This document shows, in pieces, positions 3,560-60,233 of a DNA stretch of 64,000 nt. Under the pieces are notes generated by a model that saw only the letters and a program-made list of their open reading frames with translations, was not told the origin of the DNA and did no database searches. The first letter of the stretch is position 1. Each line of letters starts with the position of its first letter. The translations under genes and the position numbers were made by a program. This DNA comes from Eledone cirrhosa (lineage: Eukaryota), in assembly GCA_964016885.1 (NCBI GenBank), contig OZ024754.1:22692001-22756000 (forward strand). Direction: 5' to 3'.

Positions 3560-6500
3560 CAATCACAAGTCAACGGCCTATGCTATCACTTCTGGTTGCT
3601 TTTCGATATGATGGATGGACTCAAGAATTTCTGGAGAGTCTGAAGAATCTGGACACTCGAAGACAATGCCAAAGATAACGACAAATTCACCTTAAGCTGC
3701 CGGACGAAAGGGCAAGGCCCCTCCTCTTTGTTGCGGCCGCGGATGGCCAACATAACCCAAACCCCATCCCCCTTACCCCTCCCTGCGCCCCACCCACCAA
3801 ACGCAATCCAAAACTTCAGAGTTGGTACCATGAATGTAGGCACCTTAAAAGGCCGCTCTAACGAGGTTTGTAGAAATGCTTCAACGTAAGGAGGTTGATG
3901 TTTGCTGTATCCAATAGACCAGGTGGAGAGGCAGGTCTGCTAGATTCATTGTGAGTAAAAAACGATGCTATAAGCTTTTCTGGGTGGGAAATGACAATGG
4001 GCTGGGTGGGGTAGGAATCATGTTAGCAGAAAAATGGGTGGATAAGATAATAGACGTAAATAGAGTGAATGACAGAATAATTAAAATAAGACTTGTTCTA
4101 AATAGAACTACTGTGACAGTAATATCTGCGTACGCGCCCCAATCCGGACTGCCTGGCGCTATAAAAGACAGATTCTATGAGACACTGATGCTCACTACCT
4201 CCCAAATAACTGACAGTGACTATATAATTATTGCTGGCGACCTAAATGGTCACGTTGGACAACATTGTGACGGCTATGACGGAATCCACGGAGGCTATGG
4301 GTTTGGTACTAGAAATGAGGAAAGCTCCAGAATCCTGGAATTCTGTGACGCAAATAACCTAACTATCTGTAACACTAACTTCAAAAAACGAGACAATCAC
4401 TTGATCACCTACAGATCAGGGGAACATACCAGCCAGGTAGATTATATCCTTACCAGAAGACGTGACAGAGTGTCTGTTTTAAACACTAAATCCCTCCCCC
4501 ATGAAGAATGCACCTCCCAACATAGACTGATAATTAGCGACCTCATAGTCAGTACGAGACGTACTCGACAGCAGAAGAGGACTATCCTCAGGAGAAAAAT
4601 ATGGAAGCTAAAGGACCCCACAGCCAGAAATAAATTTAAAAGCATATTACTTGATGCTTTCGACAGTAAGGAAGAGCATTTAGAGTCGTACAATATAGAG
4701 GAACAGTGGGAATTCCTGAAAGCAAACCTGCTGTTGACGGCAGACGAAGTCTGTGGCTGGACAAGCCTATAGGCAGGAGGAGAGTAACATGGAGTAAGGT
4801 GGAGGAGTCAATTAAGGCCAAAAAGCAGGCTTGGAAAGTATGGCGGGATGGGGGCAAGTAGAGAAGACTATCATATGGCCAGGAAGGAAGCTAGGAGACA
4901 AGTGTACTTCGCAAGAAGGGAAGCAGAGGAAAGAAAGTTCAACGCGAGGACCAAAATCGTGAGGTGTTCATGATTGCTAGGCAATGTGTCAAAGGAAAAC
5001 CGTGATATTGTCGGGGAGAAGTGTGTCCTTAATGATGATGGTGTACTTGCCATCACTGACGCTGATAAGAAGGTAGCTTGGAAGTGTCACTACGAAAGGC
5101 TACTAAATGAAGAGAATAAATGGGAGAAAGACAGACTCCCCAACATCGACCCAATAGAGGGACCAGCAGTGTTAGTCGAAGGTAGTATAATAAGTAAGGC
5201 AATCAAAGACATGAAGACGGGTAAAGCGGCTGGGCCTTCGGAAATAGTTGCTGAAATACTGAAAGCTTCTGGAACTGTGGGACACACCATGGTCACCCGG
5301 ATATTAAACCAAGTGATACAGAATGGGGTTGTTCCGAAGGACTGGAGTAGCAGCATCATCATTAACTGCTACAAGGGTAAAGGAGATGCCCTAGATAAGA
5401 GTAACTATAGAGGCATTAAATTAATCGACCAGGTCATGAAGGTCACAGAATAAGTAATAGCGCAACTAATCAGAGAGAGAATTGATCTAGATGAAATGCA
5501 GTTCGGGTTTGTGTTAGGTAAAAGTACCACAGACGCTCTTTTCATTGTACGACAACTACAGGAGAAATACCTAGCTAAAAGTAAACCCCTATACTTAGCT
5601 TTTGTTGACTTGGAGAAAGCCTTTGACAGAGTCCCCCGCTCCATTATCTGGTGGGCTCTTAGAAAACTAGATATTGATGAATGGCTTGTGAGAGCTATAC
5701 AAGCCATGTATAAAGAAACAGTCAGCAAGGTTAGAATTAACAACGAATATAGTGAAGAGTTTAGCGTAAAAGTTGGTGTTCATCAGGGCTCCGTTCTTAG
5801 CCCCCTACTATTTATTATTGCCATTCAGGCTATAACAGTGGAGTTCAAGACCGGCTGCCCATGGGAACTCCTATACGCAGATGATCTAACGCTCATAGCT
5901 GAATCAATGGCCGAACTAGAGAAGAAATTCCAAACATGGAAGCATGGCCTAGAATCAAAAGGCCTTAAAATTAACCTGTCTAAGACTAAAGTTCTAGTTT
6001 GTAGGAAGGAAATTAGGGCGCCGGGCCCATCCGGGAAATGGCCATGCTCAGTGTGTAGGAAAGGAGTAGGTAGAAACTCCATTTTATGTCCCAAATGCAA
6101 AGTATGGGTGCATAAAAGATGTAGTGGAATCACAGGTAAGCTAACTAAGAACATAGATTTTATATGTGGCCGGTGCTCTGGTGCAATAAGTAGCAGAAAG
6201 TGCCCACAGAATACTAACTCATTCCATTGCACAGATGGTTCTATAGAAATAGTGGACAGATTCCGTTACCTGGGTGACAAAATCAACAGTGGGGGAGGGT
6301 GCTCTGAAAGTACAGTAGCTAGAGTCAGAACTGGATGGAAAAAGTTCAGAGAGCTTATACCACTATTAGCCGCTAAAGGGTTCTCCTTAAAAATGAAAGG
6401 CAGGCTGTATGATGCCTGCATACGAACATCAATGTTGCATGGCAGTGAGACCTGGGCATTGTGTGCAGAGGATATACGCAGACTGGAGAGGAACGAAGCT

Positions 6501-7195
6501 TGCATGCTCCGCTGGATGTGTAATAGTAATATACGTGAACGGCAAAGCATAAACGAACTAAGGGAAAATTAGAAATAAGAGGGATCAGATGTTGTTTACT
6601 CGAGAGAAGACTACGTTAATATGGTCACGTGATGCGCATGAAAGACGACAGCTGTATAAAAAAGTGCAGGGCAATAAAAATAGACGGTAGCCAGAAAAAC
6701 CTGGGAGGACTTGATAAATTCCGAACTCACACACTTACACCTCTCCAAGACAATGTCACTGGACCGAGATCTTTGGCGATACACAGTAACAGAGAAGACC
6801 CGCCTTACTTAAGTACAAGGTGAAACCTACTACATTCAGTAGGCACCTCTAACAAAATACACCCCCGTCCCACTACCCTCACCCCACCCATACCACCCCT
6901 TTCAATGTAAAGTTATGTTGGTACCACAACATCCAGCCCGAAACAAATGAGGTCGTGTAGGTGTCACGACAAAAAAACACAGTCCACGCTGTAATGTGGC
7001 CATGGAGGTAACCCGGTAAAAACCTCCCAGTTCCACACTGTAAATGTGGTTGATGTTAGGAAGGGCATCCAGCCGTAGAAAACCCGCCAGACAGTCCTAT
7101 GCGAGCAAGACAACGACTCTTGCCTCAAGTGGGAAAACTCCCGTCCAAACCCATGCAAGCGTGGAAGATGGACGTTAAACGATGATGATGATGAT
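3560..7195 (+). mobile_element. RTE-like LINE (APE endonuclease + RT + PHD-like finger), degenerate, (GAT)n tail
   Basis: ORF fragments: VISAYAPQ, GDLNGHVG, SQHRL (APE); FVDLEKAFDRV, GVHQGSVLSP, LYADD (RT). Ends ggacgttaaac-gatgatgatgatgat. In-frame stops and frameshifts present. Confidence 0.92.
3951..6572 (+). pseudogene. Disrupted APE-RT ORF of the RTE-like LINE
   Basis: Consecutive ORFs 3951-4772, 4974-5453 and 5496-6572 give endonuclease, linker and RT in order. Confidence 0.9.
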
Positions 7196-11416: not shown

Positions 11417-11530
11417 CATATATATATATATTACATTCACGTATTATATTACATTCATTATATTCACGTATTATATTTCGAATACCTGATGATATCACCG
11501 GATTCATTACATTCACGTATTATATTTCGA

Positions 11531-11588
11531 ATACCTGATGATATCACCGGATTCATACGGAACCCGGTCATTGAAATGATCATAGTAT
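11531..11588 (+). ncRNA. Type I hammerhead ribozyme
   Basis: atac-CTGATGA-t..accgg..ccggt..t-GAAA-tgatca-TA-gtat. Confidence 0.75.
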
Positions 11589-15613: not shown

Positions 15614-16376
<763 letters not shown>

Positions 16377-17208: not shown

Positions 17209-19830
<2,622 letters not shown>

Positions 19831-20183: not shown

Positions 20184-20226
20184 ACGGTGCTGATGATAGC
20201 TAACAAGCTTGAAACTAGTACATCGT
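20184..20226 (+). ncRNA. Minimal type I hammerhead ribozyme
   Basis: acggtg-CTGATGA-t agct aaca agct t-GAAA-ctag-TA-catcgt, inside a longer gttcaac/gttgaac stem. Confidence 0.82.
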
Positions 20227-23418: not shown

Positions 23419-23641
23419 TTTCGTTTCTGAATTTGTTTAGCAAGATTCTTTATCTGAAATCGTGTGTTGAAACCGATATTGTTATACTTTGGGAGGGTCA
23501 TGTTGCCAATAAGAAACACACGCACCAGTTGCTTTCACTTCAATTTATTATATATTTATAAATTTATAAATTTACAAATCTACAAATTTATAAATTTCTG
23601 GTTGGTTGGTTGGTTCCACAACCAGATAGTTGTTTATATAT

Positions 23642-23686
23642 AGTCATAGTCCTTTCGTCACACACTCTGTGACCTCTTCAGTGACT
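23642..23686 (-). ncRNA. Minimal hammerhead (17598 family)
   Basis: Minus strand: agtca-CTGAAGA-ggtcacagagtgtgtgac-GAAA-ggac-TA-tgact. Confidence 0.72.
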
Positions 23687-24254
23687 GGGGATTCCTTTCT
23701 TTGTTTCTGTGCCTTTCCTTTCTTCTGTCCTACGGCATTTTGTTTCTGTGTGTGTGTTGTGTGCTCAGTTTGCGCATGCGCCACATCCGGGTGTCTGTGT
23801 GTGTTTGTGTTCATTTATCTATTTGTTTATTTATTTACATGTTGTTGGTTGGTTGTTTGTTCTATGTGCGTGTGTGTTTTCATTTTGTCCTTAATTGTAA
23901 GTTGTGATGTTGCTGTTCCACTCATATTTTCTATTTAATTTTGGTTGTAATTCTTTTATGTTTACTGCCTCTGTAATTTGTCTAAACATTGCATCTTTTC
24001 TGTGTGTAGATTCTATTTTTATTTCTATGTTCTCTAATTTACCCTTGTGTTCTATCTTAGCATGTTGGTAGAGTACAGATGATTCTTTATTATCTTGAAG
24101 GTCTCGCCAGTGTTCATTTATCCGTTCCCCTATACTACGAGCTGTCTCACCTATGTACACTATATTTTTGTTTCTACATTGTCCTTCAGTACATCTTATG
24201 CTATGGCGTAGGACAGAAGAAAGGAAAGGCACAGAAACAAAGAAAGGAATCCCC

Positions 24255-24299
24255 AGTCACTGAAGAGGTCACAGAGTGTGTGACGAAAGGACTATGACT
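24255..24299 (+). ncRNA. Minimal hammerhead (17598 family, inverted copy)
   Basis: agtca-CTGAAGA-ggtcacagagtgtgtgac-GAAA-ggac-TA-tgact. Confidence 0.72.
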
Positions 24300-24458
24300 A
24301 TATATAAACAACTATCTGGTTGTGGAACCAACCAACCAACCAGAAATTTATAAATTTGTAGATTTGTAAATTTATAAATATATAATAAATTGAAGTGAAA
24401 GCAACTGGTGCGTGTGGTGTGTTTCTTATTGGCAACATGACCCTCCCAAAGTATAACA

Positions 24459-24574
<116 letters not shown>

Positions 24575-24591
24575 ATATATATATATATATG

Positions 24592-24636
<45 letters not shown>

Positions 24637-24683
24637 ATATAGATATATATATATATATGTATGTATATATATATATATATATA

Positions 24684-27600
24684 TTGGAATAAATGCTCTG
24701 AAATAGCGATATATATGTGAATATAGACATAGAATATTCGAAAATATTCTGTATGTTTATAATAAACATTTTGAAGACCTAATCGCTATAGAATAGAATA
24801 CGTCACGTATTACAATTAGATTCTCGATAAAAGCAAGGGAAGTAATCTACGCGTTTCATTCTTGTTAGAAATCATCAGGACTACATATCCAGTGCTTTTA
24901 TCGAGAATGACACAGCTAGAGACTTATAGAATACTTAGCTGTGTACAGGAACTGGTTTGAAAGAGCGGTTGCCGGTCCGGCAGAAATTAGAAATTGGAAT
25001 AAATGCTCTGAAATAGCGATATATATGTGAATATAGACATAGAATATTCGAAAATATTCTGTATGTTTATAATAAACATTTTGAAGACCTAATCGCTATA
25101 GAATAGAATACGTCACGTATTACAATTAGATTCTCGATAAAAGCAAGGGAAGTAATCTACGCGTTTCATTCTTGTTAGAAATCATCAGGACTACATATCC
25201 AGTGCTTTTATCGAGAATGACACAGCTAGAGACTTATAGAATACTTAGCTGTGTACAGGAACTGGTTTGAAAGAGCGGTTGCCGGTCCGGCAGAAATTAG
25301 AAATTGGAATAAATGCTCTGAAATAGCGATATATATGTGAATATAGACATAGAATATTCGAAAATATTCTGTATGTTTATAATAAACATTTTGAAGACCT
25401 AATCGCTATAGAATAGAATACGTCACGTATTACAATTAGATTCTCGATAAAAGCAAGGGAAGTAATCTACGCGTTTCATTCTTGTTAGAAATCATCAGGA
25501 CTACATATCCAGTGCTTTTATCGAGAATGACACAGCTAGAGACTTATAGAATACTTAGCTGTGTACAGGAACTGGTTTGAAAGAGCGGTTGCCGGTCCGG
25601 CAGAAATTAGAAATTGGAATAAATGCTCTGAAATAGCGATATATATGTGAATATAGACATAGAATATTCGAAAATATTCTGTATGTTTATAATAAACATT
25701 TTGAAGACCTAATCGCTATAGAATAGAATACGTCACGTATTACAATTAGATTCTCGATAAAAGCAAGGGAAGTAATCTACGCGTTTCATTCTTGTTAGAA
25801 ATCATCAGGACTACATATCCAGTGCTTTTATCGAGAATGACACAGCTAGAGACTTATAGAATACTTAGCTGTGTACAGGAACTGGTTTGAAAGAGCGGTT
25901 GCCGGTCCGGCAGAAATTAGAAATTGGAATAAATGCTCTGAAATAGCGATATATATGTGAATATAGACATAGAATATTCGAAAATATTCTGTATGTTTAT
26001 AATAAACATTTTGAAGACCTAATCGCTATAGAATAGAATACGTCACGTATTACAATTAGATTCTCGATAAAAGCAAGGGAAGTAATCTACGCGTTTCATT
26101 CTTGTTAGAAATCATCAGGACTACATATCCAGTGCTTTTATCGAGAATGACACAGCTAGAGACTTATAGAATACTTAGCTGTGTACAGGAACTGGTTTGA
26201 AAGAGCGGTTGCCGGTCCGGCAGAAATTAGAAATTGGAATAAATGCTCTGAAATAGCGATATATAGACGTATTCTATTCTATAGCGATTAGGTCTTCAAA
26301 ATGTTTATTATAAACATACAGAATATTTTCGAATATTCTATGTCTATATTCACATATATATCGCTATTTCAGAGCATTTATTCCAATTTCTAATTTCTGC
26401 CGGACCGGCAACCGCTCTTTCAAACCAGTTCCTGTACACAGCTAAGTATTCTATAAGTCTCTAGCTGTGTCATTCTCGATAAAAGCACTGGATATGTAGT
26501 CCTGATGATTTCTAACAAGAATGAAACGCGTAGATTACTTCCCTTGCTTTTATCGAGAATCTAATTGTAATACGTGACGTATTCTATTCTATAGCGATTA
26601 GGTCTTCAAAATGTTTATTATAAACATACAGAATATTTTCGAATATTCTATGTCTATATTCACATATATATCGCTATTTCAGAGCATTTATTCCAATTTC
26701 TAATTTCTGCCGGACCGGCAACCGCTCTTTCAAACCAGTTCCTGTACACAGCTAAGTATTCTATAAGTCTCTAGCTGTGTCATTCTCGATAAAAGCACTG
26801 GATATGTAGTCCTGATGATTTCTAACAAGAATGAAACGCGTAGATTACTTCCCTTGCTTTTATCGAGAATCGAATTGTAATACGTGACGTATTCTATTCT
26901 ATAGCGATTAGGTCTTCAAAATGTTTATTATAAACATACAGAATATTTTCGAATATTCTATGTCTATATTCACATATATATCGCTATTTCAGAGCATTTA
27001 TTCCAATTTCTAATTTCTGCCGGACCGGCAACCGCTCTTTCAAACCAGTTCCTGTACACAGCTAAGTATTCTATAAGTCTCTAGCTGTGTCATTCTCGAT
27101 AAAAGCACTGGATATGTAGTCCTGATGATTTCTAACAAGAATGAAACGCGTAGATTACTTCCCTTGCTTTTATCGAGAATCTAATTGTAATACGTGACGT
27201 ATTCTATTCTATAGCGATTAGGTCTTCAAAATGTTTATTATAAACATACAGAATATTTTCGAATATTCTATGTCTATATTCACATATATATCGCTATTTC
27301 AGAGCATTTATTCCAATTTCTAATTTCTGCCGGACCGGCAACCGCTCTTTCAAACCAGTTCCTGTACACAGCTAAGTATTCTATAAGTCTCTAGCTGTGT
27401 CATTCTCGATAAAAGCACTGGATATGTAGTCCTGATGATTTCTAACAAGAATGAAACGCGTAGATTACTTCCCTTGCTTTTATCGAGAATCTAATTGTAA
27501 TACGTGACGTATTCTATTCTATAGCGATTAGGTCTTCAAAATGTTTATTATAAACATACAGAATATTTTCGAATATTCTATGTCTATATTCACATATATA

Positions 27601-28522
27601 TCGCTATTTCAGAGCATTTATTCCAATTTCTAATTTCTGCCGGACCGGCAACCGCTCTTTCAAACCAGTTCCTGTACACAGCTAAGTATTCTATAAGTCT
27701 CTAGCTGTGTCATTCTCGATAAAAGCACTGGATATGTAGTCCTGATGATTTCTAACAAGAATGAAACGCGTAGATTACTTCCCTTGCTTTTATCGAGAAT
27801 CTAATTGTAATACGTGACGTATTCTATTCTATAGCGATTAGGTCTTCAAAATGTTTATTATAAACATACAGAATATTTTCGAATATTCTATGTCTATATT
27901 CACATATATATCGCTATTTCAGAGCATTTATTCCAATTTCTAATTTCTGCCGGACCGGCAACCGCTCTTTCAAACCAGTTCCTGTACACAGCTAAGTATT
28001 CTATAAGTCTCTAGCTGTGTCATTCTCGATAAAAGCACTGGATATGTAGTCCTGATGATTTCTAACAAGAATGAAACGCGTAGATTACTTCCCTTGCTTT
28101 TATCGAGAATCTAATTGTAATACGTGACGTATTCTATTCTATAGCGATTAGGTCTTCAAAATGTTTATTATAAACATACAGAATATTTTCGAATATTCTA
28201 TGTCTATATTCACATATATATCGCTATTTCAGAGCATTTATTCCAATTTCTAATTTCTGCCGGACCGGCAACCGCTCTTTCAAACCAGTTCCTGTACACA
28301 GCTAAGTATTCTATAAGTCTCTAGCTGTGTCATTCTCGATAAAAGCACTGGATATGTAGTCCTGATGATTTCTAACAAGAATGAAACGCGTAGATTACTT
28401 CCCTTGCTTTTATCGAGAATCTAATTGTAATACGTGACGTATTCTATTCTATAGCGATTAGGTCTTCAAAATGTTTATTATAAACATACAGAATATTTTC
28501 GAATATTCTATGTCTATATTCA
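24684..28522. mobile_element. Retrozyme-like tandem array of 310 bp units with 12 hammerheads in two divergent arms (junction ~26265)
   Basis: Exact 310 bp period. HHRs on minus near 24842, 25152, 25462, 25772, 26082; on plus at 26496, 26806, 27116, 27426, 27736, 28046, 28356. No ORF; flanked by (TA)n. Confidence 0.9.
26496..26538 (+). ncRNA. Minimal type I hammerhead ribozyme (representative array copy)
   Basis: gtagtc-CTGATGA-t ttct aaca agaa t-GAAA-cgcg-TA-gattac; predicted cleavage after 26532; enclosed by the attctcgataaaagca/tgcttttatcgagaat stem. Confidence 0.85.
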
Positions 28523-28541
28523 TATATATATATATATGAGT

Positions 28542-28665
28542 GAAGGCGTGTGGCTGAGTGGTTAGAGAATTGGATTCGCAATCGTAAGGTTGTGAGTTCG
28601 ATTCCTGGACCAGGCGATACGTTGTGTCCTTGAGCAAGACACTTTATTTCACGTTGCTTCTTCTA
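28542..28665 (+). mobile_element. tRNA-derived SINE (CORE-like body), truncated
   Basis: A box tggctgagtgg, B box gagttcgattc, followed by gtgtccttgagcaagacactttattt. Confidence 0.8.
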
Positions 28666-36170: not shown

Positions 36171-36208
<38 letters not shown>

Positions 36209-36413
36209 TGTTATACTTGGGGAGGGTCATATTTGTGTAATATTGCCAGAATTAATAACAGAACACACTCACTGTTTGGTTGGTTTTCGCTTTTCGCTTC
36301 TGTCTCTTTTATATCGGTAATCTAATTTATTCGGTCCTCAATGTTGCCATTGACTGACCGACGGTAAAAAATAATACAGATACAATATAGACACAAACAC
36401 ATATATATAGTTT

Positions 36414-36455
36414 ATCATAAATCTTTCGTTACACATCTGCAACATCGTCAGTGGT
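36414..36455 (-). ncRNA. Minimal hammerhead in PLE 3' terminal repeat
   Basis: Minus strand: acca-CTGACGA-t gttgca gatg tgtaac-GAAA-gatt-TA-tgat; one stem I mismatch. Confidence 0.6.
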
Positions 36456-39097
36456 GCTATTGTTTCCTCCCGTTATATTGTATGTCTACGCCATTTTTAT
36501 TTAGTCTGTCTATATATTTATTTATTTATTTGCTTGTTTGTTTATTTTATTTTGTCTTCTTTGCGCATGCGTTTGCGTGTGTGTATAGTGTTTTGTTTGA
36601 TGTGTGTTCGTGATTGGGTGACTAGTGTGTGTTTATATGTGTTTGTTGTTATTGGGCTTGTGTATGTATTTATTTATTTATTTATCTATTTATTTATTTA
36701 TTTATACTTCTCTTAGGTCAGTGTTGTTTGATTGGGTGTTGTTGTTATTCCATTCATTCTTTCTGTTTAGTCTTGGCCTTCTAAGTTCTATTTCACTGGC
36801 CTCTCTGATTTGCCTATCTGCTGGGTCATTTCTATGTTTAGATATTATTCTAATTTCTATGTTGTCTATGTTACCGTCGTGTTGTTGTCTGGCATGTTCG
36901 TATAGTACTGACCCGTTTTTTCGTCCTTTTAGTTCCCCCCAGTATTGGTTTATCCTTTCACCTATGCTACGAGCTGTCTCACCTATGTATGTTGTTGTCA
37001 TGTTTCTGCAAGTACCCTCTGTACATCTTATGCTATAGACTACGTTTCTAGTTTTACAGTTTATCCGGGGGTTTACCTTACATATGATACATTTCCTATT
37101 AGTACAGTGGGTTTTCTTAAAAGGGTAGGTTTTGCTGATCAGGGATTTTATGGTGGTTCCTGGCTTTTCTACCACCTTAATCTTTAAGTGGGTCTTTCTC
37201 AGGGCCTTTCTACACTGGTTAGCTAACTTCCCTCCAGGGGTAGCGTCCACAAACATGACACTCTGGTATCTCTGGTTGTCGTACCATGAGGTGGCTTTCC
37301 CTATCTTATGTCTAGCCCTATCTAAGCTATTCCATGATTTACTCCTGTATAATGGGCAAATTCCTTTCATGTCCAGTTCTATGAGGGTCTTATATTTCTC
37401 CATGGCTCCTTCGTATACTCTGACTCTGTCTCTTTGGTTGTAGCCAGAGAACTGCATGCGGTTGATGAAGTGTTGGATGTGTCTTTCCATTTCTGTTGGG
37501 TCGCACATGCGGGACACATTCTTCATCACTCGTACCAAATCTGCGATCAGAATATTAAACTTAGCACTACTGGACATTGCTGAGTTTTTGAGTATCAGGT
37601 ATTTGGAGGCCATGGGTTTAGCATAGTGTGAGTGGAGAATTTGGGCTCTCTCGTCTATAGTGTTAATCCAGAGTTCCGTGTCTAATACAGGTAGTCTATT
37701 GTTAGGGTGTTTGGAAGGGAAGTCGATAGTTACAGTTATACTCTGGTGTATGGAATTAGGTATCTGCTGGATGCTTTCCATTGTGCTACGTTCTAAATCA
37801 AACTTGTTAGTGCTCTCTAGTGGGGATGTTCTTATAACTATATTGATATCGTCTACATAACGAGAGTACATGATGAGGTCTATGGAGCTCTCATTAAGGA
37901 GATCTTTAAGTCTCCTTTCCCACCATACCATGGAAAGGTTGGCACCATCACCAGCTATGCTGACGCCAATGGCTGCTCCCTCATTTTGGGTGTAGATCTT
38001 CTCGTTGAACTTAAATATGTGGCCCTTTAGGGTAGTTTTGATACTAGCCCCTATTGCATGTGCGACCATTTTTTTTTTCTTACCTGATCATTGTTTTGGG
38101 GGGTCCGTATAGCTTTGGTCCACCCAATCCACCTTCCCATGGGAGTCTTTTTTGCCATTGAGGTTATGGTGGGGGTCTACCTCTTATGGGTCTACTAGGG
38201 CAGAAACGTCTAAGGTCATGACTGTCTAGGTAGTCAGTGTCGTAGGTAAGTCTAAGTAGGAGGCCCAGTTCGTCTGTGTCGACGTCGCAGAACTCCACCT
38301 CACTCTCAATGATCATCTCCACACATTTTTTCACAGCAAAATCAATGTTAATGGATGGGTACAGTGACACCACATCCATGCTGCCTATTATGCAGTTGGA
38401 TAGGTTCCTGTTTTTGTTGCACTCACTGATTCTGCTGAGGAGGTCCTCTGTACTGTCACATACATCTGGGGACATCTTGATTATGGAGCGTATAACCATT
38501 GAGAGGAAGTAGGAGATCCTGTAGTTGCTAGCTATATTAGCTCCGCATACGGGTTTTGTTGGTGGTCCTGTTGTCGGGTCGTCGACTGTCTTGTGGTCTT
38601 TGTGGAGCCCATACAAGGGTGGTATGCCATTGTTAGACGCCTGGAAGTTGTTGGCAGTGCGTCTGCTTGGCTTTAGGATGTCAGTCCACATCATCATGTG
38701 AGCGTTGAGGATTTTCTCTCTCCCATCATATGTTTGTTGTGCAATTTCGCTCGTGTTGGTGATGTGGGGTTGCATAGCCTTGATGTAGTTCGGCATGCTA
38801 TCTATTGACATCCTACCAGATTTATCCGTGGGTAGACATACTACCTCACCATCCCTTGTGCGCTGCTTGAGGCTAACTAAGCCTTCTACAGGTTTCCTCC
38901 CAAGTTGTTGGGCCTCTGGTCTGCTCTGTCTCTTATTTGTCTAATCTTATTTCTAGCTATGGTGAACTGTGCCTCTGTCTCGTCATCTATTTGTTGTGGT
39001 ATGCAAACTCTTTTATTAAAGGGTAACCTCGTAGGATAGATATTACCCATCTTATATGTTTTGTCAGCTGGGTTGAAAAATAGTTTCTCTAAGGGGT

Positions 39098-39290
39098 TGT
39101 CGGTGGATTGGCAGTATCGGTAGAGGGTCGGACGCCATGCTTTGAAGCATAGAGTTACCTCCCTGTATGATCTGAGTTCAAATCCCGCCGAGGTTAACTT
39201 TGCCTTTCATCCTCGCGGGGTCGATAAAATAAAGTACCAGTAATGCACTGGGTAATTGATGGCCTTGTGCCAAAAGTAGAAACAATTATA
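39098..39290 (+). mobile_element. tRNA-derived SINE inserted in the PLE ORF
   Basis: Near-identical to 35621-35810. Confidence 0.85.
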
Positions 39291-40328
39291 TCTATCGTCA
39301 TATTTGTGTGTGTTGCTATTATTGTTATCATGGTGGTTGTTGTTGTTCCTATCATTAGCATTATTATTATTGTTATGATTGCTAGATGTATTGTTGCTGT
39401 GATTGCTAGATGTATTGTTGTTTACTTCACCGTTATTGTTGTTGTTACTGTTATTTCTACCATTGTGGTTGTTACTTTTATTATGTTTCTTGTTTTTGTT
39501 GTGTCTATCATTAATGTTGCTACATGTATTATTTCCATTATTACCACTGTGGTTATTGTTCTTGTTGTTCGTATTGTTACCGTTATTACTACTGTGGTCG
39601 CTGCTGCTGTGTCTGTGGTTAATGTTTCTATTATTATTATTATTGTGGTTGTTGTTGTTGTTCTGTCTATCGTTACTATTATTACCATTATTACTATTTC
39701 TCACTTTCCTGCTATTGTTATTGTTATGGCTGTTATTTCTATACTCAGAGTTATTGTTTATATTACTACTACCGTTATTATTGTTGTTGTTGTTTACTTT
39801 TGCATTCCAACGTATTTTTGTGAAACACTTTTCCAGCTCCGTTTTGCACTCCATAGGGTTAATCTTTTTGTAGATGGCAAATTTTGGTGGTAGCTGCAGG
39901 ATTTGTTGTTCTTGTTCACTGATTAAAGTGTTCCCATAAATATTTACTGTGTGGTCATTGGTAAATTCTTCCGGTAGTTTTACATCAGTCATACGGATAT
40001 TGTCGATGTTATCTGGGTATTCTTGAGAATATTCTATTTTCCTTTCTTGTAGTTTTTTCTTATTCATCCATTCTAATTTCTTATTGAAATGCCTATTGCA
40101 TTCGTTTCGGGCGTATTTCGTTTCACGTCGGATGACGCTCATGAAGTTATCCCTCTCGTTTGGCGTGGTGAGATTTCGGACTTCCTTATCGTTAATGCGT
40201 TTCTGTCTGTAAAGTTCGTTGACTTTTGTGTATGTTGTTCTTTTCATATTAACTGTTATTGTGTGTTTTAGTCGTTCAGCTTGTGTTTTGTTCAATAATA
40301 AATTATTTACTTGTTTTGATATGTTTGT

Positions 40329-40380
<52 letters not shown>

Positions 40381-40383
<3 letters not shown>

Positions 40384-41107
40384 AAATGAGTCCCTCATCA
40401 GTGATTTGCCGAAGATCATAGATATTTCATTGCATTAAAAATCATATACCTCACGTCGGTGCAATAATAACCAAAATAAGTTATTAGGACAATTAAAACG
40501 CGTAAAGCGAGTGAGACAGGAGAACAACAAAGAGTATGGCTAACCAGGGGAAAGAAACAAGCTTCAAAAATTATTCTGTTTAGCATAAGCTAGGTGAATA
40601 TATGAGCGCTTTTAGAACAGACCCGACACGAGCGAAGGCTATGAGCGGAGAGAGAAAAATAGCCTTCGTGGTGTACAGGATGAAATGAAGAGAAGAGAGA
40701 GAAACAGTGACTGAGTGAAAGTGTGAGGAAGAGTTAACTGACATGACAGTTAACTCTTCCTCACACTTTCACTCACTCACTGTTTCTCTCTCTTCTCTTC
40801 ATTTCATCCTGTACACCACGAAGGCTATTTTTCTCTCTCCGCTCATAGCCTTCGCTCGTGTCGGGTTTGTTCTAAAAGCGCTCATATATTCACCTAGCTT
40901 ATGCTAAACAGAATAATTTTTGAAGCTTGTTTCTTTCCCCTGGTTAGCCATACTCTTTGTTGTTCTCCTGTCTCACTCGCTTTACGCGTTTTAATTGTCC
41001 TAATAACTTATTTTGGTTATTATTGCACCGACGTGAGGTATATGATTTTTAATGCAATGAAATATCTATGATCTTCGGCAAATCACTGATGAGGGACTCA
41101 TTTTATT
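40381..41107. repeat. ~725 bp near-perfect palindrome centred at ~40743
   Basis: ...gaagagttaactg acatga cagttaactcttc...; arms match out to ataaaatgagtccctcatcag / ctgatgagggactcattttat; a related diverged copy lies at ~30450-30750. Confidence 0.92.
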
Positions 41108-42339: not shown

Positions 42340-45300
42340 CAACTAACAGCGCTGCGATCGAATGTGGCTTTCTCGACCAGCCAATGATCTAAAATGTCTT
42401 GCACGGAGTCGGCAACCAAAACATTCACTGGGAATAGTCGGCTGTGGTAGAAGTTCGTGTACTTTTGCATGTCGCTTGAGCCCTCCTGCTGATTTACATT
42501 CTCTACCACATGTTTGGCAAGCATCTCCAACAGCAGCCTGGTAGTCAACCACTGGTTTTACTTTATGACTGCGAAGATGACTTTCGAGTCCAGCTTTGCT
42601 TAGGCAGAGTCTCGCACAGACGCTGCATGTCAGCACCATAGGAGGACCCTCGCCGTCTGGAAGTGCAACAGCAATGCCCTTCCTCACATCCCGCTTTACT
42701 TTCTCGTTTGCGATTCGAGATGCCTCAAAGGCAACTTTTCCCTCATATACAGTCTTTCTCCATTTATTACGATCAGCAGCAATATTTTCCCATGTATCAG
42801 CAGAGATGTTAGCGTCTTTCAGAGAGGCTTTCAAGGAATCCTTATACCTCTTTTTTGGTTTATGTGGCTCTCCAATCATCTGTTTTGGTATTCTAGAATC
42901 CTTCATCCTGGCAAGGTGACCACTCCAACGGAATCGTTGCTTAAGCACAAGAGCCTCTATACTGTCACACATAGAGCTTTCCAAAATCTCGACATCACTG
43001 ATGTGGTCCCTCCAGTGAACGCCATGGATCCGTCTGAGACACATCTGATGGAAACGCTCCAATTGCTTAAGGTGGTGTCGATATGTGTCCCAGGTCTCGC
43101 AGGCATAAAGAAGACAAGAGAGCACACATGCCCTGTACACCTTTACCATTGTCCTCCTGCATATGTCTCGCCGACCCCAGAGTCGCCTTTCTAGCTTTCC
43201 GAAAGCATCATTTGCTTTCCTAATCCTAAGTGAGATTTCACTGTCAAGGTTGCTGTATCGATTGACAGTGCTTCCCAGGTAGACAAACTGATCAACCACT
43301 CCAAGTCGTTTACCATACACATAGATGTTTGGTTCAGTGTACTGCTTACCAGGGGCAGGTTGGTACATGACGACAGTTTTCTTGAGACTGACAGTCAATC
43401 CTAGGGCAGTGCAAGCGTCAGAAAATGCATTCAAAATGTGTGTGCTACAAGATCGCAATCATCTGCATACAAGAGGTCTCTTATGATTGATGTAAATACT
43501 TTTGTCTTTGCAGCAAAGCGCCTGATGTTAAATATGCTGCCTGAGGTTCGATATCGGATGTAAACACCATGCTCGCAATTCCTGAATGCAATACAGAAAA
43601 CCATTGCAAAATATATGGCAAACAAGGTCGGTGCTAGAATATCCCCCTGTTTCACTCCATTTTTTTTTATTGACATAGGCTCCGACATGTTACCTCCGAC
43701 ATTAACCCAAGCCTTCATGTCGTCATGGAAAGACCTAATTAAAGCAAGGAACTTATCAGGGCAACCAAGTTTCTGGAGAACCTTCCATAATGCATCTCTG
43801 TTAACAGTATCGAAAGCTTTTGTCAGATCGACAAAAACCTGATACAGATCCAAGCCTTGTTCCATGCACTTCTCCTGGAGCTGTCTAGCTGAGAAGATCA
43901 TATCAGTAGTGCCGCGTCCAGCACGAAAACCAGATTGACTTTCAGGAAGAACACAATCTGCAATGTGTGTCAGCAGACGGTCCAGAAGCACCCTACATAA
44001 AACTTTCCCTACGACAGAAAGCAATGATATACCTCTGTAGTTCCCACAATCATTCCTGTTACCCTTTCCCTTGTACAAGACCACCATTACTGCATCTCTC
44101 CAGTCCCCAGGTACGGATTCATTAGCCCATATCCTGCCAAACAAAGAGTGAAGATGTTGCAGGAGTCTCTCACCACCATATTGTAGGACCTCAGCATGTA
44201 TGCCATCTATACCTGGAGATCTTCCACTGTTCAGCTTCGAAATAGCCACTGCAACCTCCACAAGCGTCGGAGGTTCTGCGAGAGCTACTTTCACAGGACT
44301 TTCCTCTCCTGTGGTTTTGCCGTCAAGTAGCGTGACAGAGCACGCCTCTTATCAGCCAACAAGTCTTCTATATGTACATCATTCATCATTCTCATTAAAC
44401 CAGTCTTGATGTTTTCTCTGCACCAATCCCAGAACACGCCTGCCTACATCATAAACCGACTTTTTAAGGGTCGGCCAATCCTCACCAAGATCTGCAGCCT
44501 GCATCTCTTCTTCCAATGTCCTCTTCACATTTTTATCCTTAAGACGAGCAACATTCAATCTTTTGGGCAGGGCAACACCAGGAGCCCGGATTTTACGTTT
44601 AGTGATTAGTTTCACTTTTGCGCGTACCAAGCGGTGGTCCGTCCAGCACTCAGCTCCACGAAGAGCACGAACACACTGCACATCCTGTCTGTCACGCATC
44701 CTGACTAGGACGTATTCCAAAAGATGCCATTCCTTACATGCAGGATGCATCCATGTGGTCTTGAATTTGTTCTTTTGTTGGAACATGGTGTTGGTAACAC
44801 ACAGATCCAGCTCCTCACACATCTGCAGCAGGAGCATACCATTGTTGTTACACTTTTCCACCCCATGCCTTCCGATTACATTCCATGTGTTAAAATCCCT
44901 ACCCACTCTAGCATTAAAGTCACCAAGCACGATGACTTTGTCTGCTGAGGGATATTTCTTAAAACACCTTTCAAGGCATGGTAAAAGGACACTTTTTCTT
45001 CATCGACAGAATTCATAGTTGGAGCATACACACTCACCAGGGTCGCATATCTTCCTTTGTCCAGCGGAATTCTCGTGGACATAAGACGCTCACTATTCCC
45101 TACTGGGAATTCTTCTAATTTATTCACAAGAACAGTCTTAACAGCAAATCCTACCCCAGCCTCTCTTCTGGTTCCTTCATCTCTTCCTTTCCAGAAGAAT
45201 GTATATTCTCCACAAAATTCCGTAAGATGACCATCTCCAGCTAACCTCGTCTCAGATAAAGCCACGATGTCAAGATCGTAACGTCGAAGCTCCTTTGCAA

Positions 45301-45500
45301 CAAAAGCGGTCCTTCGTTCAGGACGCTCCAAGGAATCCCAGTCAAGCAGCGTCCGTACGTTCCAGCAGCCAAGACTAAATGCCTTGTTTGGCTCTATTAC
45401 AATGGCACGATGACGAGCGGGCCCAGGCTGTGATAACCTGGGGCCCCTGCCCTTATTGCCAATTATCTCTTTTATATTGTTCTGGAACATCATTGAATTG
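42340..45500 (-). mobile_element. RTE (BovB-like) LINE ORF, frameshifted: APE, RT and C-terminal C2H2-like fingers
   Basis: GCWNVRTL, LSETR, GDFNARVG, TDHRLV; FVDLTKAFDTV, GVKQGDILAP, LYADD; CSVC..HLRSH, CQTC..HAKVH. Confidence 0.93.
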
Positions 45501-45541
45501 GGAAAAAAAAAAAAAAAAAAAGTAATAATAATAGTAACAAC

Positions 45542-45583
<42 letters not shown>

Positions 45584-45584
<1 letters not shown>

Positions 45585-48500
45585 TGGAATCACTGGCAAC
45601 AGAACAAATTAAAGAAAGGATCGAAAAAGTGGAGGGAGTGCATGCTCAAGATGAAACTCCAAATGAAAATAATGAGATCATAAATGATAAAGAAATGAAT
45701 GAGAATGAACTTGCCAACTTGAAGGATGAAATTATGATCGAATGAATGAAAATGAAAGAATCTGACATGGGGCAACGAGACACCCTCCCTAAGATCCAGA
45801 ACTCCAAACAGAACCAAAAGATAATACGCAAGACTAACATAATTCACAAAAACATTATCATCACAAACTAAACATTACTGATTTAAATCATCTCTATTAT
45901 GCATCAGCTAAAGTCACCACTCACTTATGTGGAGTGAAGATGAAAAAACAAAGGAATTCCCACAAGAAATCTACTTGGCAAGAGAACATCAATCGCCAAA
46001 TAAACCTTCTCCGATCTGGCATAGTTAAAAAACTATAAAGTAGGTGAACATGTTAAACAAACTAAACTTAGAAAATTGAAAAGAAAGTACAGTATAAAAT
46101 CAACAAGTGACATAGACATGCTGATAGAAATAATCAAGCAAAAAGTGTCGGCCAAAGCTGCTCGTATAAGGCGCTTTGAAAAACGATCTAGATTCTATAA
46201 GGACAATAATATGTTCAAAAACAACCAAAGAAACTTCTACATAAAAATTAGTAAGTCAACAATAACTGCTAAATCAATACCACCCAAGGAGGAAGTGCAA
46301 GAATTCTGGGAAAAGATTTGGGCCGAAGAAAAAGTTCATAACATACATGTCCCATGGATAGACAGACAAATGAAAGATACAGCTCACCTTGAGGAACAAA
46401 TATGGGAAAATATAACAGTTGAACAGTTGCGCTTGGCTCTAAGAAAAACCAGCAAATGGAAATCCCCAGGAAAAGACAAAATACAAAATTTTTGGATAAA
46501 TGCCTACACAGAGTCTCATGAGCTGTTAGCCCAACTTTACAATGAAATAGTTAAGGAGCCAGAAAAGATACCATCATGGCTAGTTAACGGCATTACATTC
46601 CTGCTTCCGAAGAATGATGAGACAAACAATCCCAAAAATTACAGACCGATAACTTGCTTGACCACAATGTATAAAATTTTAACATCAGTCCTAACTGAAT
46701 ACACATATGACCACCTGATAACAAATGACCTATTTCCCATTGAGCAGAAAGGGTGTAAACGAGGCTCATATGGCTGTAAAGATCAGCTTTTGGTTAACAA
46801 AATGATACTGGAAGATTGTCATAATAGACACAAAAATCTATCAATTGCTTGGATAGATTATAAAAAAGCATTCGATAGTTTGCCACACAGTTGGATTGAA
46901 AAATGTTTAGAGATTTTCAAAATATCCCCCGTTGTCAGGAGGTTTTTGTCATTCAGTATGAAGACATAGAAAACGACACTCCTTTTGAATAGTGAAACAA
47001 AATCACTGGAAGCTGGAGAAGTTAATATTAATTGTGGAATTTTTCAGGGTGACTCTTTATCACCGTTTTTATTCTGCATCGCACTTATACCATTAAGTAA
47101 AATGCTCAATGAAACAAAACATGGATATAAAGTCTATGACAAAACCATTAATCACTTGTTCTACATGGATGACCTGAAACTATTTGCAAAAAATGATGAA
47201 CAATTGCAAGGGCTATTATCCACTGTGAAGCAGTTCAGTGATGACATTAAAATGGAGTTTGGACTAGATAAATGCGCCAAAGCAACGTTCACCAGAGGAA
47301 AGCTGCCGAAGAGTTCAGACATTAATCTTGATCGGGGGAACGTGATAAGAGAACTTGATCAAGAAAAAACTTACAAATATCTAGGTGTTTGTGAAGGAGA
47401 CGGAATCAAGCACTCGACAATGAGGGAAAGGATAAGGAAGGAATGTTACCGCAGAGTAAGAGCAATCTTAAGAACGGAATTGAATGCAAGGAATAGGATA
47501 GATGCCATAAACACGCTTGTCATACCAGTAGTAACCTACAGTTACAATGTCATCAACTGGTCAAGCACAGAGATCCGTAGGCTCGATACAAAAATTCGAA
47601 AATTCTTAACCATGCATAGAATGCATCACCCTAAGGCAGATACAGATAGAATATATCTCCCTAGGAAAGAAGGAGGACGTGGGTTAATCCAGTTAGACAT
47701 TGCGTTGAAAACTGCAACAATTGGATTATCTACATATCTAAGGGAATCACATGATTGGATGATCAAACTCGTTTTGAAACACGAAAGCATCAAAAGATCC
47801 TACAAAAGATGCACAAAGATACAGTAATGGACTACAAATTTCAGAAGTCCCATTTACTGCTGAAATGGAAAACACAGAAAAAGCAAAGCAGGTAAAAGTA
47901 ACTGCAAAGAAAGAACTGCTACAGAAACTGGTTAAGAAATGGCAAGAAAAGCCTCTGTATGGAAAATACCCAGAACGAGCTAACAATCCTGATGTTGACA
48001 AAACTTTAACCCATCAGTGGTTGGCATCCTCTGGACTGAAATCGGAGACTGAAGGACTGATTATATCAGCACAAGATCAGTGTCTGCCAACAAAAAATGA
48101 CCAAGCCAACATAATAAAAAATGGATGCAGCCCATTATGCCGTGTATGCAAAAAACAACCAGAGACCATTGACCATATAATTTCAATGTGCAGTCCTATA
48201 GCTCCAACCGAATACCTAAACATGACAGAGCTGCACAATACATACATTGGATAATGTGTAAGCATTTTGACCTGCCCCATCAAAAGAATTGGTGGGAGCA
48301 TCAACCACCTCCCATACTTGAAAAAGATCACATCTCAATCTTATGGAACTTTAGCATCCAAACAGACCGAAAAATAGGTGCAAATAGACCTGATATAATA
48401 TTGAAGGACTTTAAAAAGAGGGTATGCCTGCTAATTGATATGTCCGTTCCAATAGACAAGAATGTATCTATAAAAACATTTGAAAAATTGAGCAAGTATA

Positions 48501-53007: not shown

Positions 53008-53052
53008 TTGCTGACAATGTTTCGTCCCATTAATTAGGATTCATCAGAGCAA
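53008..53052 (-). ncRNA. Type I hammerhead ribozyme, GUC site
   Basis: Minus strand: ttgct-CTGATGA-atcct aattaat gggac-GAAA-cattg-TC-agcaa. Confidence 0.8.
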
Positions 53053-55900: not shown

Positions 55901-56179
55901 TATATACACATATATATATATAGATATAGATATATACATATATATATATCACCAGATCAACAACCTTAACACTCTCGATTACCTGCTTAAATGCTTCTAC
56001 TACACGTAACTCTCTGCCACACTATATAAACAAGACGCACGTGCTTGCCACACATATAACCTTTGCACTATATAACCGCTTAATTTCATGTTGTATTTTA
56101 ACCTGTATTTTTGATTGTATCTTTTAATATGAATGTAATCTCTAAGTGTGTACTGCCACTCTAAATGTGGTAATAATGT

Positions 56180-57090
56180 CTGAATCTTTCTTCATTTCTT
56201 GTGCCAACCCCATGGCCTCCATGGACTCTATTGAAGCCGTCACAGTGTTTACCTACGTGTCCGTTAAAATCTTCTGCGATGATTAGGAAGTCATTGTCGT
56301 TTGTTAGAGCAGTAGTGTGCATTAGGGACTCGTAAATTAGGGACTCCTTCAGTTCGTCTGGCAACCCCGATTTGGGTGCGTAAGCTGATATTATTGTGGT
56401 AATTGTTTTCAGGACTAGTCTGAGTTTAATGATTCTTGCATTTACCCTGTACACTGAGATTACTTTATCTACCCACTTGTCAGCTAGTAGTATACCTACA
56501 CCACCCATCCCATCGTCATTTCCCAACCAGAAAAATTTGTAGCACTGACTTTTTCCTACAAATACTCTAGCAGACTCTCCTCTCCATCTAGTCTCTTGCA
56601 CACAGCATACATCAATTTCCTTTCGCTCTAGTATCTCTACGATTTCTCCTGCTCTTCCTTTCATTGTGCTTACATTGATGGTACCAACTCTGAGTTTTGG
56701 GCATTTGTCAACATTCGTAGGGTCGATTTTTGCAGGGGTGTGTGTGTGCTTCCTGTCTCTGAATTGGAGCTTCACATGGGTGCCTGGTAGCTCGCGGATT
56801 CATATTCATTTTCATCTATTAATTCAGAGTTGCTCCATTTATTCTCAGCTCATCCATACATAACGGTAGGAATATTCAGAGCTAGAAGAACAGTGGTGGT
56901 GGTAATAATGGCAGGGTGTGTTGGGGCTGGGACGTGTGAGGAGAGAGGTAGGTAGTAGTAGAAATGGCAGGGTTTGTTGGGGTTGGTATTGGGTGAGTGG
57001 GACATGTGAGGTTTGATTGGTTGAATAGGCTATGGTGGTGTGTGGGGGTGGGCGGGATGGAAATTGTGAGATAGGTAGCTATCATGGCCT
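56180..57090 (-). mobile_element. 5' part (APE N-terminus) of an RTE-like LINE, inverted relative to its 3' part
   Basis: ORF 56161-56775: VGTINVSTM, CVQETRW, ISAYAP, DFNGHVG; homologous to 3820-4330. Confidence 0.85.
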
Positions 57091-57669
57091 ATAGCATCTC
57101 AGGGCAAAATAAACTGATACGAGTACCTATATTAGACAAGGCGAAATATTAAAGTTAGGATTTCAAAGTGAGTAGATGACTTCGTAGAGACAGCGAAATG
57201 ATAAATACAACAACACTAATAATAATGTAAGAGAGAGGAAGGGGGTAGATGACTTCGTAGAGAGACAGCATGGGAAAAGAAAACGAGGGTAAAAAATAAA
57301 TGTGTTGTGGAGGTTAGTCAAATGTTAAATACAACAATAATAGTGTGAGCGGAACATTTGCAATTGGGAAATAGAGAGATACCTGGAAGATATATATGGA
57401 TGGATGGCCGGAACATGGTTTAGAAGCTCTAGTGATTCATTTTAGCCTTTCAGAATCAAGTGTGTCTTAAAGAACTTCAAGATGAGTGAGGAATGAATGA
57501 ATGAAAAGGAGGTAATAGGTGGATTAGAGAGATAGATAGAGAGAGAGGGTAGCCATATATATGTATATATATGTATATATATATGTGAAAATTGTAAACT
57601 TGACTGTCACCACAGAATATGAACCTGAAGATTGCGAAAGCATGAAAGTACTTGTTCAATTAACACTTA

Positions 57670-60233
57670 ACATGGAAGCTGAAAGACCCCTCAACCAGTA
57701 ACAGATTTAAAGATATTTTACTCAACGCCTACGACAGTAAAGAAGAACAGATAGAGACATTCAATGTAGAAGAGAACTGGGAGTTCCTAAAAAATAACTT
57801 ACTAGAGGCGACGGATGAGATCTGTGGCTGGAGTAAGACCTCAAGCAGGAGGAGAGTGACTTGGTGGTGGAACAATAAGGTAGATGAGGCAGTTAAGGCC
57901 AAGAGACAGGCATGGAAAGAATGGAGAACGGGGGGAGCAGGGTACATTACATAGAGACCAAGAGAGAAGCTAGGCGACAAGTATACTTAGCTAGGAGGGA
58001 AGCAGAGGATAGAAAATTCAAGCATGTTTTGCAACGTGAGGACCAGAAACAGGAGGTGTTCAAGATTGCGAGGCAGTGTGTCAGAGAGAGTTGTGATGTC
58101 ATTGGAGAGAAGTGTATCCGGAATGATAAAGGTGAGCTTGCTCTCACAAGTGCTGAGAAGAAAGATGCATGGAAGAGTCATTATGATAGATTACTAAATG
58201 AGGAGAATGCATGGGAAGAAGAGACCCTACCCCAAGTAGACCCTATAGAGGGGCCAGCAGTACAAGTCAGCAGCAACGTAGTAAGTAAGGCAATCAAAGA
58301 TATGAAGATGGGGAAGGCAACCAGTCCATCGGTATAGCTGCCGAGATGCTGAAGGCATCTGGGTCTGTAGGTCACACTATAACCACACGTATTGTTAACC
58401 AGGTAATACTAGAAGGTGTCATACCAAAAGATTGGTGCAGTAGCATCATTGTCAACTGCTACAAAAGTAAAGGTGATGCACTAGATAGAGGAAACTATAG
58501 AGGTATAAAGTTGATGGACCAGGTCATGAAAGTAACAGAAAGAGTTATAGCACAGTTGATTAGGGACCGGGTGAAAATAGACGAGATGCAATTTGGGTTT
58601 GTACCAGGAAGAGGCACCACTGATGCCCTCTTCCTTGTGAGGCAGTTACAGGAAAAGTACCTAGCTAAAAGTAAGCCACTCTACTTGGCATTTGTCGACC
58701 TTGAGAAAGCCTTTGACAGAGTTCCACGTGCTGTAATCTGGTGGGCTCTTAGAAAACTAGGAGTAGATGAATGGCTTGTGAAAGCAGTACAAGCCATGTA
58801 TAGGGGAGCATTCAGCAAAGTTAGGATTAGCAATGAGTATAGCGAGGAATTTAGTGTACAGGTTGGAGTCCACCAGGGCTCTGTTCTTAGCCCCTCCTGT
58901 TCATCATAGTCCTGCAGGCAATAACGGAGGAGTTTAAGACCGGATGCCCATGGGAGCTCCTGTATGCTGATGACCTCGCACTTATAGCTGAATCTATGGT
59001 AGAACTAGAGAATAAATTCCAAACTTGGAAGCAGGGACAAGAAAGAAAGGGTCTCAAAGTCAACATGACAAAGACTAAGGTCCTTGTAAGTAGACGAGAA
59101 AACAGAACCCAGATCCCCTCAGGGAAATGGTCTTGCTCAGTATGTAGGAAAGGTGTAGGTAGGAACTCCATTCTCTGCCCCAAATGCAAACAATGGGTAC
59201 ACAAGAGATGTAGCTGGATCTCAGGAAGCTTAATTAAGAATGTAGGCTTCACATGCAGCAGCTGTGCTGGGACAGCAAGCAGCAAACAGCCACAGGAAAC
59301 AAGTACCACCAATCTCTGGGAGGGCTCTGTAGAAACAGTAGACAGCTTCTGCTACCTAGGTGACCGAATTAGCAGCGGAGGTGGGTGTTCAGAAAGTACA
59401 ATAACTAGGGTAAGAACGGGATGGAAGAAGTTTAGGGAACTACTACCACTGCTAGCTGCAAAAGGCTTCTCCCTCAGAATGAAAGGCAGACTGTATGATG
59501 CGTGTATCCGAACAGCGATGTTGCATGGTAGTGAGACCTGGGCGCTGAAAGTGGAAGACTTACGTAGATTAGAGAGAAACGAAGCCTGCATGCTCCGATG
59601 GATGTATAACAGTAATATACGTGAACGACAAAGCATAAATGAATTGAGAGAGAGACTGAGCATAAGAGGAATAAAATGCTGTGTGCAGGAGAGGCGGTTG
59701 CGCTGGTATGGACATGTGATGTGTATGAAGGATGACAGCTGCATAAAAAGGTGCAGAGCACTAGAAGTCGATGGAAACCGCGGAGTGAGGAGACCCAAGA
59801 TGACCTGGGATGAGGTGATAAAAGCCGACCTTACCCAATTACACCTCTCAAAAGCAATGACACACGACCGTGACCTCTGGCGTCACGCAGTAATACAGAG
59901 TACCCGACCTCCCATGGGTACAAGCTGAAGCATATAGACAATATGTCCCCACACCCCCCACTGCAAGGTGGTCGTGGAGGTGCCACGGCAAAAAAGCACC
60001 CAGCCCACACTGTAAAGTGGACGTGTAGGCGCCACGAAAAAGCACCCAGCACTCACTGTAAATGAGGTTGGTGTTAGGAAGGGCATCCAGCTGTAGAAAT
60101 CAAGCCAAATCAGTTCCTGTATGAGCAAGGCATGGTCAGCCGACCAGACACTGCCCACAACAGGACAACCCGTCTAACCCATGCTAGCGTGGAAGAACGG
60201 ACGTAAAACGGTGATGATGATGATGATGATGAT
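57670..60233 (+). mobile_element. RTE-like LINE 3' part (RT + PHD-like finger), (GAT)n tail
   Basis: Homologous to 4600-7195; FVDLEKAFDRV, LYADD, RLRWYGHV; ends gatgatgatgatgat. Confidence 0.92.

Follow-up and report, generated by a model that had tools for sequence, protein, structure and literature searches.

The window, the whole 64,000-nucleotide stretch of Eledone cirrhosa DNA that we analysed, contains at 24684..28522 a head-to-head array of a 310-bp unit with a GC content of 34%. Unit positions are numbered from 26533, the first base past the predicted cut. The leftward arm has its 5' end at unit position 133 and matches the unit with 0 mismatches, while the rightward arm has its 5' end at unit position 44 and carries a single substitution, at 26872. 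Thus the period of 310 bp, with one difference between units, and the five leftward and seven rightward hammerheads described in the initial annotation were recovered here, the CUGAUGA cores lying five on the - strand and seven on the + strand. The absence of an open reading frame (ORF) that it had claimed was likewise borne out: the longest stop-to-stop frame in the array, with no start codon required, measures 61 aa, neither the unit nor the arms hold an ORF, and there is no LTR, the arms abutting (TA)n directly. The array is itself not an autonomous Penelope-like element, as it has no ORF with reverse transcriptase plus GIY-YIG. We infer that the 35-nt tail equals the distance separating the two priming sites.

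Table 1. Features of the retrozyme array, in window coordinates.
Feature	Position	Strand	Remarks
(TA)n target tract, left	24459..24682		
Arm ending at site B (unit position 165)	24683..26265	-	5.1 units, five hammerheads
35-nt tail (unit 131-165), closes - arm only	24683..24717	-	
Head-to-head junction of two 5'-truncated arms, blunt here	26265..26266		
Arm ending at site A (unit position 130)	26266..28522	+	7.3 units, seven hammerheads
Type I hammerhead with 16-bp outer stem	26472..26560	+	predicted cut after GUA at 26532
310-nt monomer predicted between successive cuts, spanning unit positions 1-310	26533..26842	+	
Unit position 276 (UAG in stem I)	27118..27118	+	
Unit position 310, cleavage-site A	27152..27152	+	
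(TA)n target tract, right	28523..28538		

The left (TA)n run also holds a fragment of a very abundant young Penelope-like family (23419-24459), itself divergent, with a weak GIY-YIG match at 23894-24256 and hammerheads at 23681 (-) and 24260 (+); related pieces lie at 17389-19742 and 36208-40394. To the right of the array is a SINE-like repeat (28539-28660) that is very deep in run X1.

The hammerhead at 26472..26560 comprises a 6-bp stem I, CUGAUGA at 26502 and GAAA. Stem II consists of a U.U pair and 3 bp closed by a UAACAA loop, and stem III of 2 bp with a palindromic loop that could pair between copies (duplex, -9.5 kcal/mol). By motif scan, a type I hammerhead with core and stems I-III is found in every unit (12/12). 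The hairpins listed in the initial annotation (the 16-bp outer stem, the UUCG hairpin and acacagcta/tagctgtgt) are all present in the computed fold, and its predicted cut after 26532 and monomer at 26533-26842 agree with our coordinates. Its description of the hammerhead core as intact holds for the sequence but less well for the structure, in which stem II opens with U.U and stem III has 2 bp, and Rfam scores fall below cut-off: no match was obtained at the gathering cut-off, and below it only HH9 was returned (19.2 bits, E 0.025, cut-off 52). Compared with shuffled sequences, the unit fold gives z = -4.4 as a linear molecule and -4.8 as a circle, and the active-like fold is computed to lie ~8 kcal/mol above the minimum-energy fold. 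In these predictions the hammerhead of the 310-bp unit looks weak. No fixed variants fall in the 12 core positions in the sampled loci, yet only ~1 would be expected. The axolotl HHR_Amex2, as described in PMC7229834, likewise has a stem II with U.U at its base and a stem III of 2 bp; it is weak alone, with 22% cleavage in 1 h as a monomer, and cleaves better as a dimer. Among Xenopus dimers, 1/9 is reported to cleave (10.64898/2026.07.22.740005).

The 49-nt core of the unit has 4,149 exact copies in the 3.0-Gb assembly, in which the window occupies C14:22692001-22756000, against 0 for the control. Patterns for the arm ends gave 666 forward matches for B and 618 for A; as reverse matches appeared two or three times each, the forward matches were doubled, giving ~1,300 B ends and ~1,240 A ends. 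The family comprises roughly 1,300 young insertions, in (TA)n, and with a mean of ~9 units per two-armed insertion we estimate roughly 12,000 units. The insertions studied come nearly all from C1 and were drawn from the first 100 places per pattern. The array is very probably one insertion of this young, dispersed family of non-LTR retrozymes. Metazoan non-LTR retrozymes (Cervera and de la Pena 2020, PMC7229834; Li, Clavereau, Pollet 2026, 10.64898/2026.07.22.740005) share with it tandem low-GC units of 170-400 bp with one type I hammerhead each and no ORF, as well as dispersal alongside Penelope-like elements. The insertions studied here are in addition two-armed, with fixed ends, a tail and putative edits fixed in arrays, features for which we found no description in these two sources. 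The class itself is known, and the unit sequence is new to our searches. A literature search that covered few subscription papers gave no account of this retrozyme family, nor of retrozymes inserted as two arms or with edits fixed in their arrays, and for the terms searched PMC13282606 and PMC6962438 returned no mention of retrozymes.

The inversion is the normal form of the family and not peculiar to the array at 24684..28522. We compiled 82 junction rows (L043 and L058 contribute two each), from which 3 cut by the stretch end were dropped; 77 of the remaining 79 consist of one A arm and one B arm, with no A+A and no B+B, and the exceptions are L043, where there is an internal duplication, and L054, where an end is damaged. 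The A class of ends spans unit positions 108-141, with 65 ends at 130 or 139, and the B class spans 155-175, with 54 ends at 165. Because 34 stretches had been selected for A and B matches close together, the unbiased subsets are reported separately. Insertions picked by the core were two-armed in 10/12 cases, with one single-armed and one broken by a gap, and those picked by the B end, with A ignored, carried an inverted A arm in 18/21, the other 3 being single-armed. Arm ends adjoin (TA)n, and since this is the target, target-site duplications are unreadable. The fetched arms are pure unit sequence from end to junction, and the central junction may fall at any unit position, mostly with an overlap of 0-5 nt or a few extra bases. 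We found no difference in length between A and B arms (Wilcoxon p 0.23, n 54), nor any relation between their 5' ends, which argues that the junction is not a one-point fold-back. At L036 the central junction holds 272 bp of unrelated GC-rich sequence between the arms, either a captured template or a later insertion.

Some loci have gaps or duplicates (L033, L058), as an assembly or fold-back read artefact would leave, but fold-back reads could not yield the A+B rule, the free central junctions (77) or haplotypes private to an array, and A-type ends are joined to (TA)n in X1 short-read contigs. An artefact is thus next to impossible, and the array is a genuine insertion.

The arrangement of an inverted 5'-truncated arm, a tail on one end and a microsatellite target is that of a Penelope-type insertion; the hallmarks described for such insertions are an inverted truncated copy, microsatellites as targets and, at one end, a tail of 30-40 bp (PMC8557442, PMC3846280). 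According to PMC11167929, the Penelope tail reflects the spacing between two internal start sites, with cutting and extension taking place on both strands of the target. Endonuclease-bearing Penelope-like elements as described in these three sources thus resemble our family in the inverted copy, one-end tail and target, and in having two internal start sites with both strands cut and extended; they differ from it in that the retrozyme has no ORF and in that each of its arms is a concatemer of several units. A further difference is in the match to the (TA)n target, which is partial at site A (9 nt) and limited to 1-3 nt at site B. The insertions very probably arose by Penelope-type twin priming, the two arms being two priming events at fixed sites. 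The initial annotation had missed both events as well as the editing described below; its view of a recent, Penelope-mobilised retrozyme is upheld by the 4,149 cores, the two fixed arm ends and a tail of 26-37 nt, and further by the (TA)n targets and the young autonomous Penelope-like families in the genome. Mobilisation of retrozymes by Penelope enzymes from circles is put forward as a proposal only in PMC7229834 and 10.64898/2026.07.22.740005. Chlamys elements such as MRC1 are, like our family, non-coding, multicopy, head-to-tail and made by Penelope-like enzymes; unlike the retrozyme, MRC1-type elements are described as having no canonical hammerheads and 3' ends in common with their partners (PMC8557442).

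Two autonomous Penelope-like families were examined. The first gave 39,624 first-look candidates, the best 150 at 83-99% identity, with frames of > 1,000 aa. The second has a C-terminal GIY-YIG-like domain and two fixed ends of its own, and its ending at two fixed sites was counted for twin priming. Pfam matches of both are weak and below cut-off. The retrozyme tail aligned to these two families and to one other hammerhead family at shuffle level only, and no autonomous partner sharing the tail was found among the loci examined. The autonomous C-terminal GIY-YIG family (L188, L192 and L198 on C1; 4,210 matches) has a hammerhead core and stem II nearly identical to those of the retrozyme, kilobases of TA/TG repeats in its 3' region and a 1.07-kb tandem derivative at C1:83.68 Mb. 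The likeness of core and stem II (41 vs 15 +/- 3, a score inflated by the universal core) would fit an origin of the units by truncation of the terminal repeats of an autonomous Penelope-like element; as the arms are wholly unit sequence and there is no similarity beyond the ribozyme, this origin is highly improbable.

The variants carried by the arms bear on the template. For insertions with at least 2 full units per arm, fixed variants are identical between the arms in 33/34 (24 non-reference, chance 0.13), and since both arms share them each insertion has one source. Among 73 loci there are 28 haplotypes fixed in all laps (L213, with two insertions, counted as one). Arm 5' ends lie <=3 nt from the cut site in 2/174 cases (~3 expected if uniform), and single-lap variants at the cut site number 0/126, over 825 crossings. 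The scarcity of such ends and the lack of variants at the cut indicate a template without a cut 5' end and with a seamless junction, that is, a closed circle or an uncut multimer. The same observations weigh against reiterated copying of an unligated monomer, in which a telomerase-like enzyme would jump between stem-held ends: there is no excess of arm ends and no error at the cut site over the 825 crossings. Such copying would account for all-lap fixation as well as a circle does, and it could switch both arms at the same lap, as in L211; Penelope enzymes are, moreover, described as related to telomerase (PMC8557442). A change of the terminal base would however be required for arrays with 310G in all laps, and we consider this route quite improbable.

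Satellite-like growth, in which short insertions were later expanded and homogenised at the DNA level, has been proposed for vertebrate retrozymes (10.64898/2026.07.22.740005), and some later expansion does occur, as the longest arms carry periodic shared variants (L035, L052, L067). As an origin of the family it is very improbable. Both inverted arms are multi-unit with private variants in common, the lap variants that the arms share line up when counted from the outer ends and not from the centre, and in laps covered by both arms 42/46 lap-specific variants are unshared, which argues for little ongoing conversion. The long arms (L067/L068, L035, L052) hold 19 to about 45 units, and their periodic variants reflect either later DNA-level expansion or assembly effects.

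A circle is likely to be the usual template. The rolling reverse transcription of a circle claimed in the initial annotation is supported indirectly by the all-lap variants, though not for three exceptions. In L211, both arms contain two laps of one haplotype followed by another, and in L099 and L062 one lap-1 variant is common to both arms. These in-register variants are unlike what a single monomer circle would give and call for a non-uniform template or a joint switch; the patterns point to linear multimers at times. Twin priming from an uncut linear multimer, transcribed from a few dozen uniform source arrays without circles, would explain all three loci, and it is also favoured by the weak-looking hammerhead, by the 8/9 Xenopus dimers without cleavage (10.64898/2026.07.22.740005) and by the purified anole Penelope protein, whose main substrate in vitro is uncut RNA (PMC11167929). 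As the general mode it nevertheless appears unlikely, if by no means negligible. It gives no way to fix new variants in all laps, as seen in the 28 haplotypes and in the occurrence of 276G on five backgrounds, and the haplotype junction of L211 is unique to that locus in the assembly, no source array having been found for it.

Edited circular templates would also account for A>G changes that recur in whole arrays. Run X18 shares the organism label and study of X1, derives from another sample and contains 88 million letters of contigs; its library is not recorded as RNA. Compared with the unit, it shows 13 A>G, 7 T>C and 1 T>G sites, at 4-43%, and its loose ends consist of unit sequence in which almost every A or every T is altered. 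In run X1, two A>G and one C>T exceed the threshold. A 5' G neighbour is found at 0/20 of the X18 A>G/T>C sites vs 42/204 of the background, and ADAR is described as avoiding 5' G (PMC9638939). X18 can be read as RNA hyper-edited on both strands, as read-through fold-back would give, and because both strands are edited it would reflect read-through duplexes and not circles. Its top sites are unit positions 276 and 310, both in UAG triplets. In the genome, fixed substitutions include 10 A>G and 4 T>C among 28, compared with 6 and 14 among 98 single-lap substitutions (Fisher p 0.035), and 6/10 of the fixed A>G fall in stem I or the outer stem, where 14/92 As lie (p 0.0006). Selection can add to this excess, since A-U to G.U stays paired and U-A to C-A breaks.

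The change 276G occurs in 834 genomic units, in insertions other than the array at 24684..28522. The matches listed (100 of 834) fall in 14 arrays, which represent five backgrounds; in all of them 276G forms runs, and L082 and L196 are mosaic. The B arm of L082 has four laps with A and then G, and its A arm has G throughout, a pattern for which either one edit during rolling or a template switch would do. Position 310 is the cleavage site, where 310G converts GUA to GUG and is predicted to block cleavage by the NHH rule, which excludes G at this position; inosine there slowed cleavage ~30-fold in one test (PMC3923133). Whole dead arrays had been predicted, for the case that circles undergo editing once ligated, before the search, which returned 30 matches for 310G: two insertions changed in all laps of both arms (9/9 and 20/20), on different haplotypes, and one single lap. 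At position 309, taken as a control, the changes searched for turned up in 8 scattered single laps. The 310G argument stands on these two insertions. A simple match between X18 and the genome is unsupported, as 304G, at 25% in X18, has one single-lap genomic match and 0 whole arrays; in addition, the A>G most often seen in the genome, 295G, is missing from X18 and most X18 sites are not fixed variants. Whole-array 276G and 310G are what an edited monomer circle predicts. Were linear multimers the template, edits would scatter by lap; the two all-lap 310G insertions also have no source array among the 30 matches, and they did not spread, although uncut RNA would suit that model. That RNA edits have been written into the genome is, on balance, slightly favoured by these data.

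Taken together, the explanation that we consider best, and reasonably probable, is Penelope-type copying of a self-cutting 310-nt RNA, likely circular, from two fixed sites. The retrozyme RNA would cut itself into the predicted 310-nt monomers, which would likely close into circles. A Penelope-like reverse transcriptase-endonuclease would then prime from both strands of a cut (TA)n tract, each cut strand priming one cDNA of one RNA, one at A and the other at B, and each polymerase would make a median of 3-4.5 laps of the template, displacing strand as it rolled, before the two cDNAs were joined at their far ends through microhomology of 0-5 nt or the addition of a few bases. In a minority of insertions the template may have been non-uniform, as a linear multimer or by switching. 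A-to-I edits made on the circle before copying would appear as G in every lap, and read-through transcripts of an insertion may fold into long duplexes, which would fit the hyper-editing of both strands. The full germline loop, in which an ADAR-edited ribozyme circle is rolled from two primers by a Penelope-like enzyme and edits enter every repeat, we hold at about even chances. If true, arrays record rolling-circle reverse transcription together with RNA editing as a source of heritable change, and even an edit that blocks the ribozyme's own cut site enters every repeat of new arrays. The family offers ~1,300 young insertions whose priming sites are exact, and its putative all-lap edits are natural marks of circular vs linear templates. 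It shows how inverted Penelope arms relate to one template molecule, supplies what an in vitro test of a Penelope protein would need (a substrate, two start sites, two edit sites), and makes every two-armed insertion a ready source of long double-stranded RNA.

The unit was also found under 17 organism labels, and horizontal spread was considered and is not supported. Runs X2, X5, X6 and X16 fit trace DNA: each has one unit contig of 331-340 nt at low depth, and X2 and X5 also carry traces of the neighbouring SINE-like repeat. The raw reads of run X21 gave 0 unit matches in 1.9 Gb. Among the 17 labels the trace-DNA reading covers X2, X5, X6, X16 and X21. None of the runs containing the unit is listed as RNA.

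No Penelope ORF was linked to the sister-family loci L138-L167. An older sister retrozyme of 322 bp lies in the window at 15738-16190 (-) and has 914 pattern matches. It is 74-78% identical around the tail region and retains that region, both end sites and the two-arm layout. Its core has UUGAUAA where the array unit has CUGAUGA; core positions 3 and 8, which form a pair in the hammerhead (PMC11167929), have thus both changed, to U3-A8. Another type I hammerhead repeat is present in two copies, at 20190 (+) and 21998 (-), with a stem II similar to that of the array unit (U.U, UAACAA/UAAUAA loop). Further hammerhead-like motifs occur at 53047 (-), 54538 (-), 57625 (+) and 11486/11535/14337 (+), most of them adjoining (TA)n; those at 11486-11556 lie inside a 49-bp tandem, without a clear GAAA. 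Finally, the window contains fragments of LINE-type reverse transcriptase and endonuclease at 3918-6572, 42343-48254 and 56161-59928, two of them with PHD fingers.
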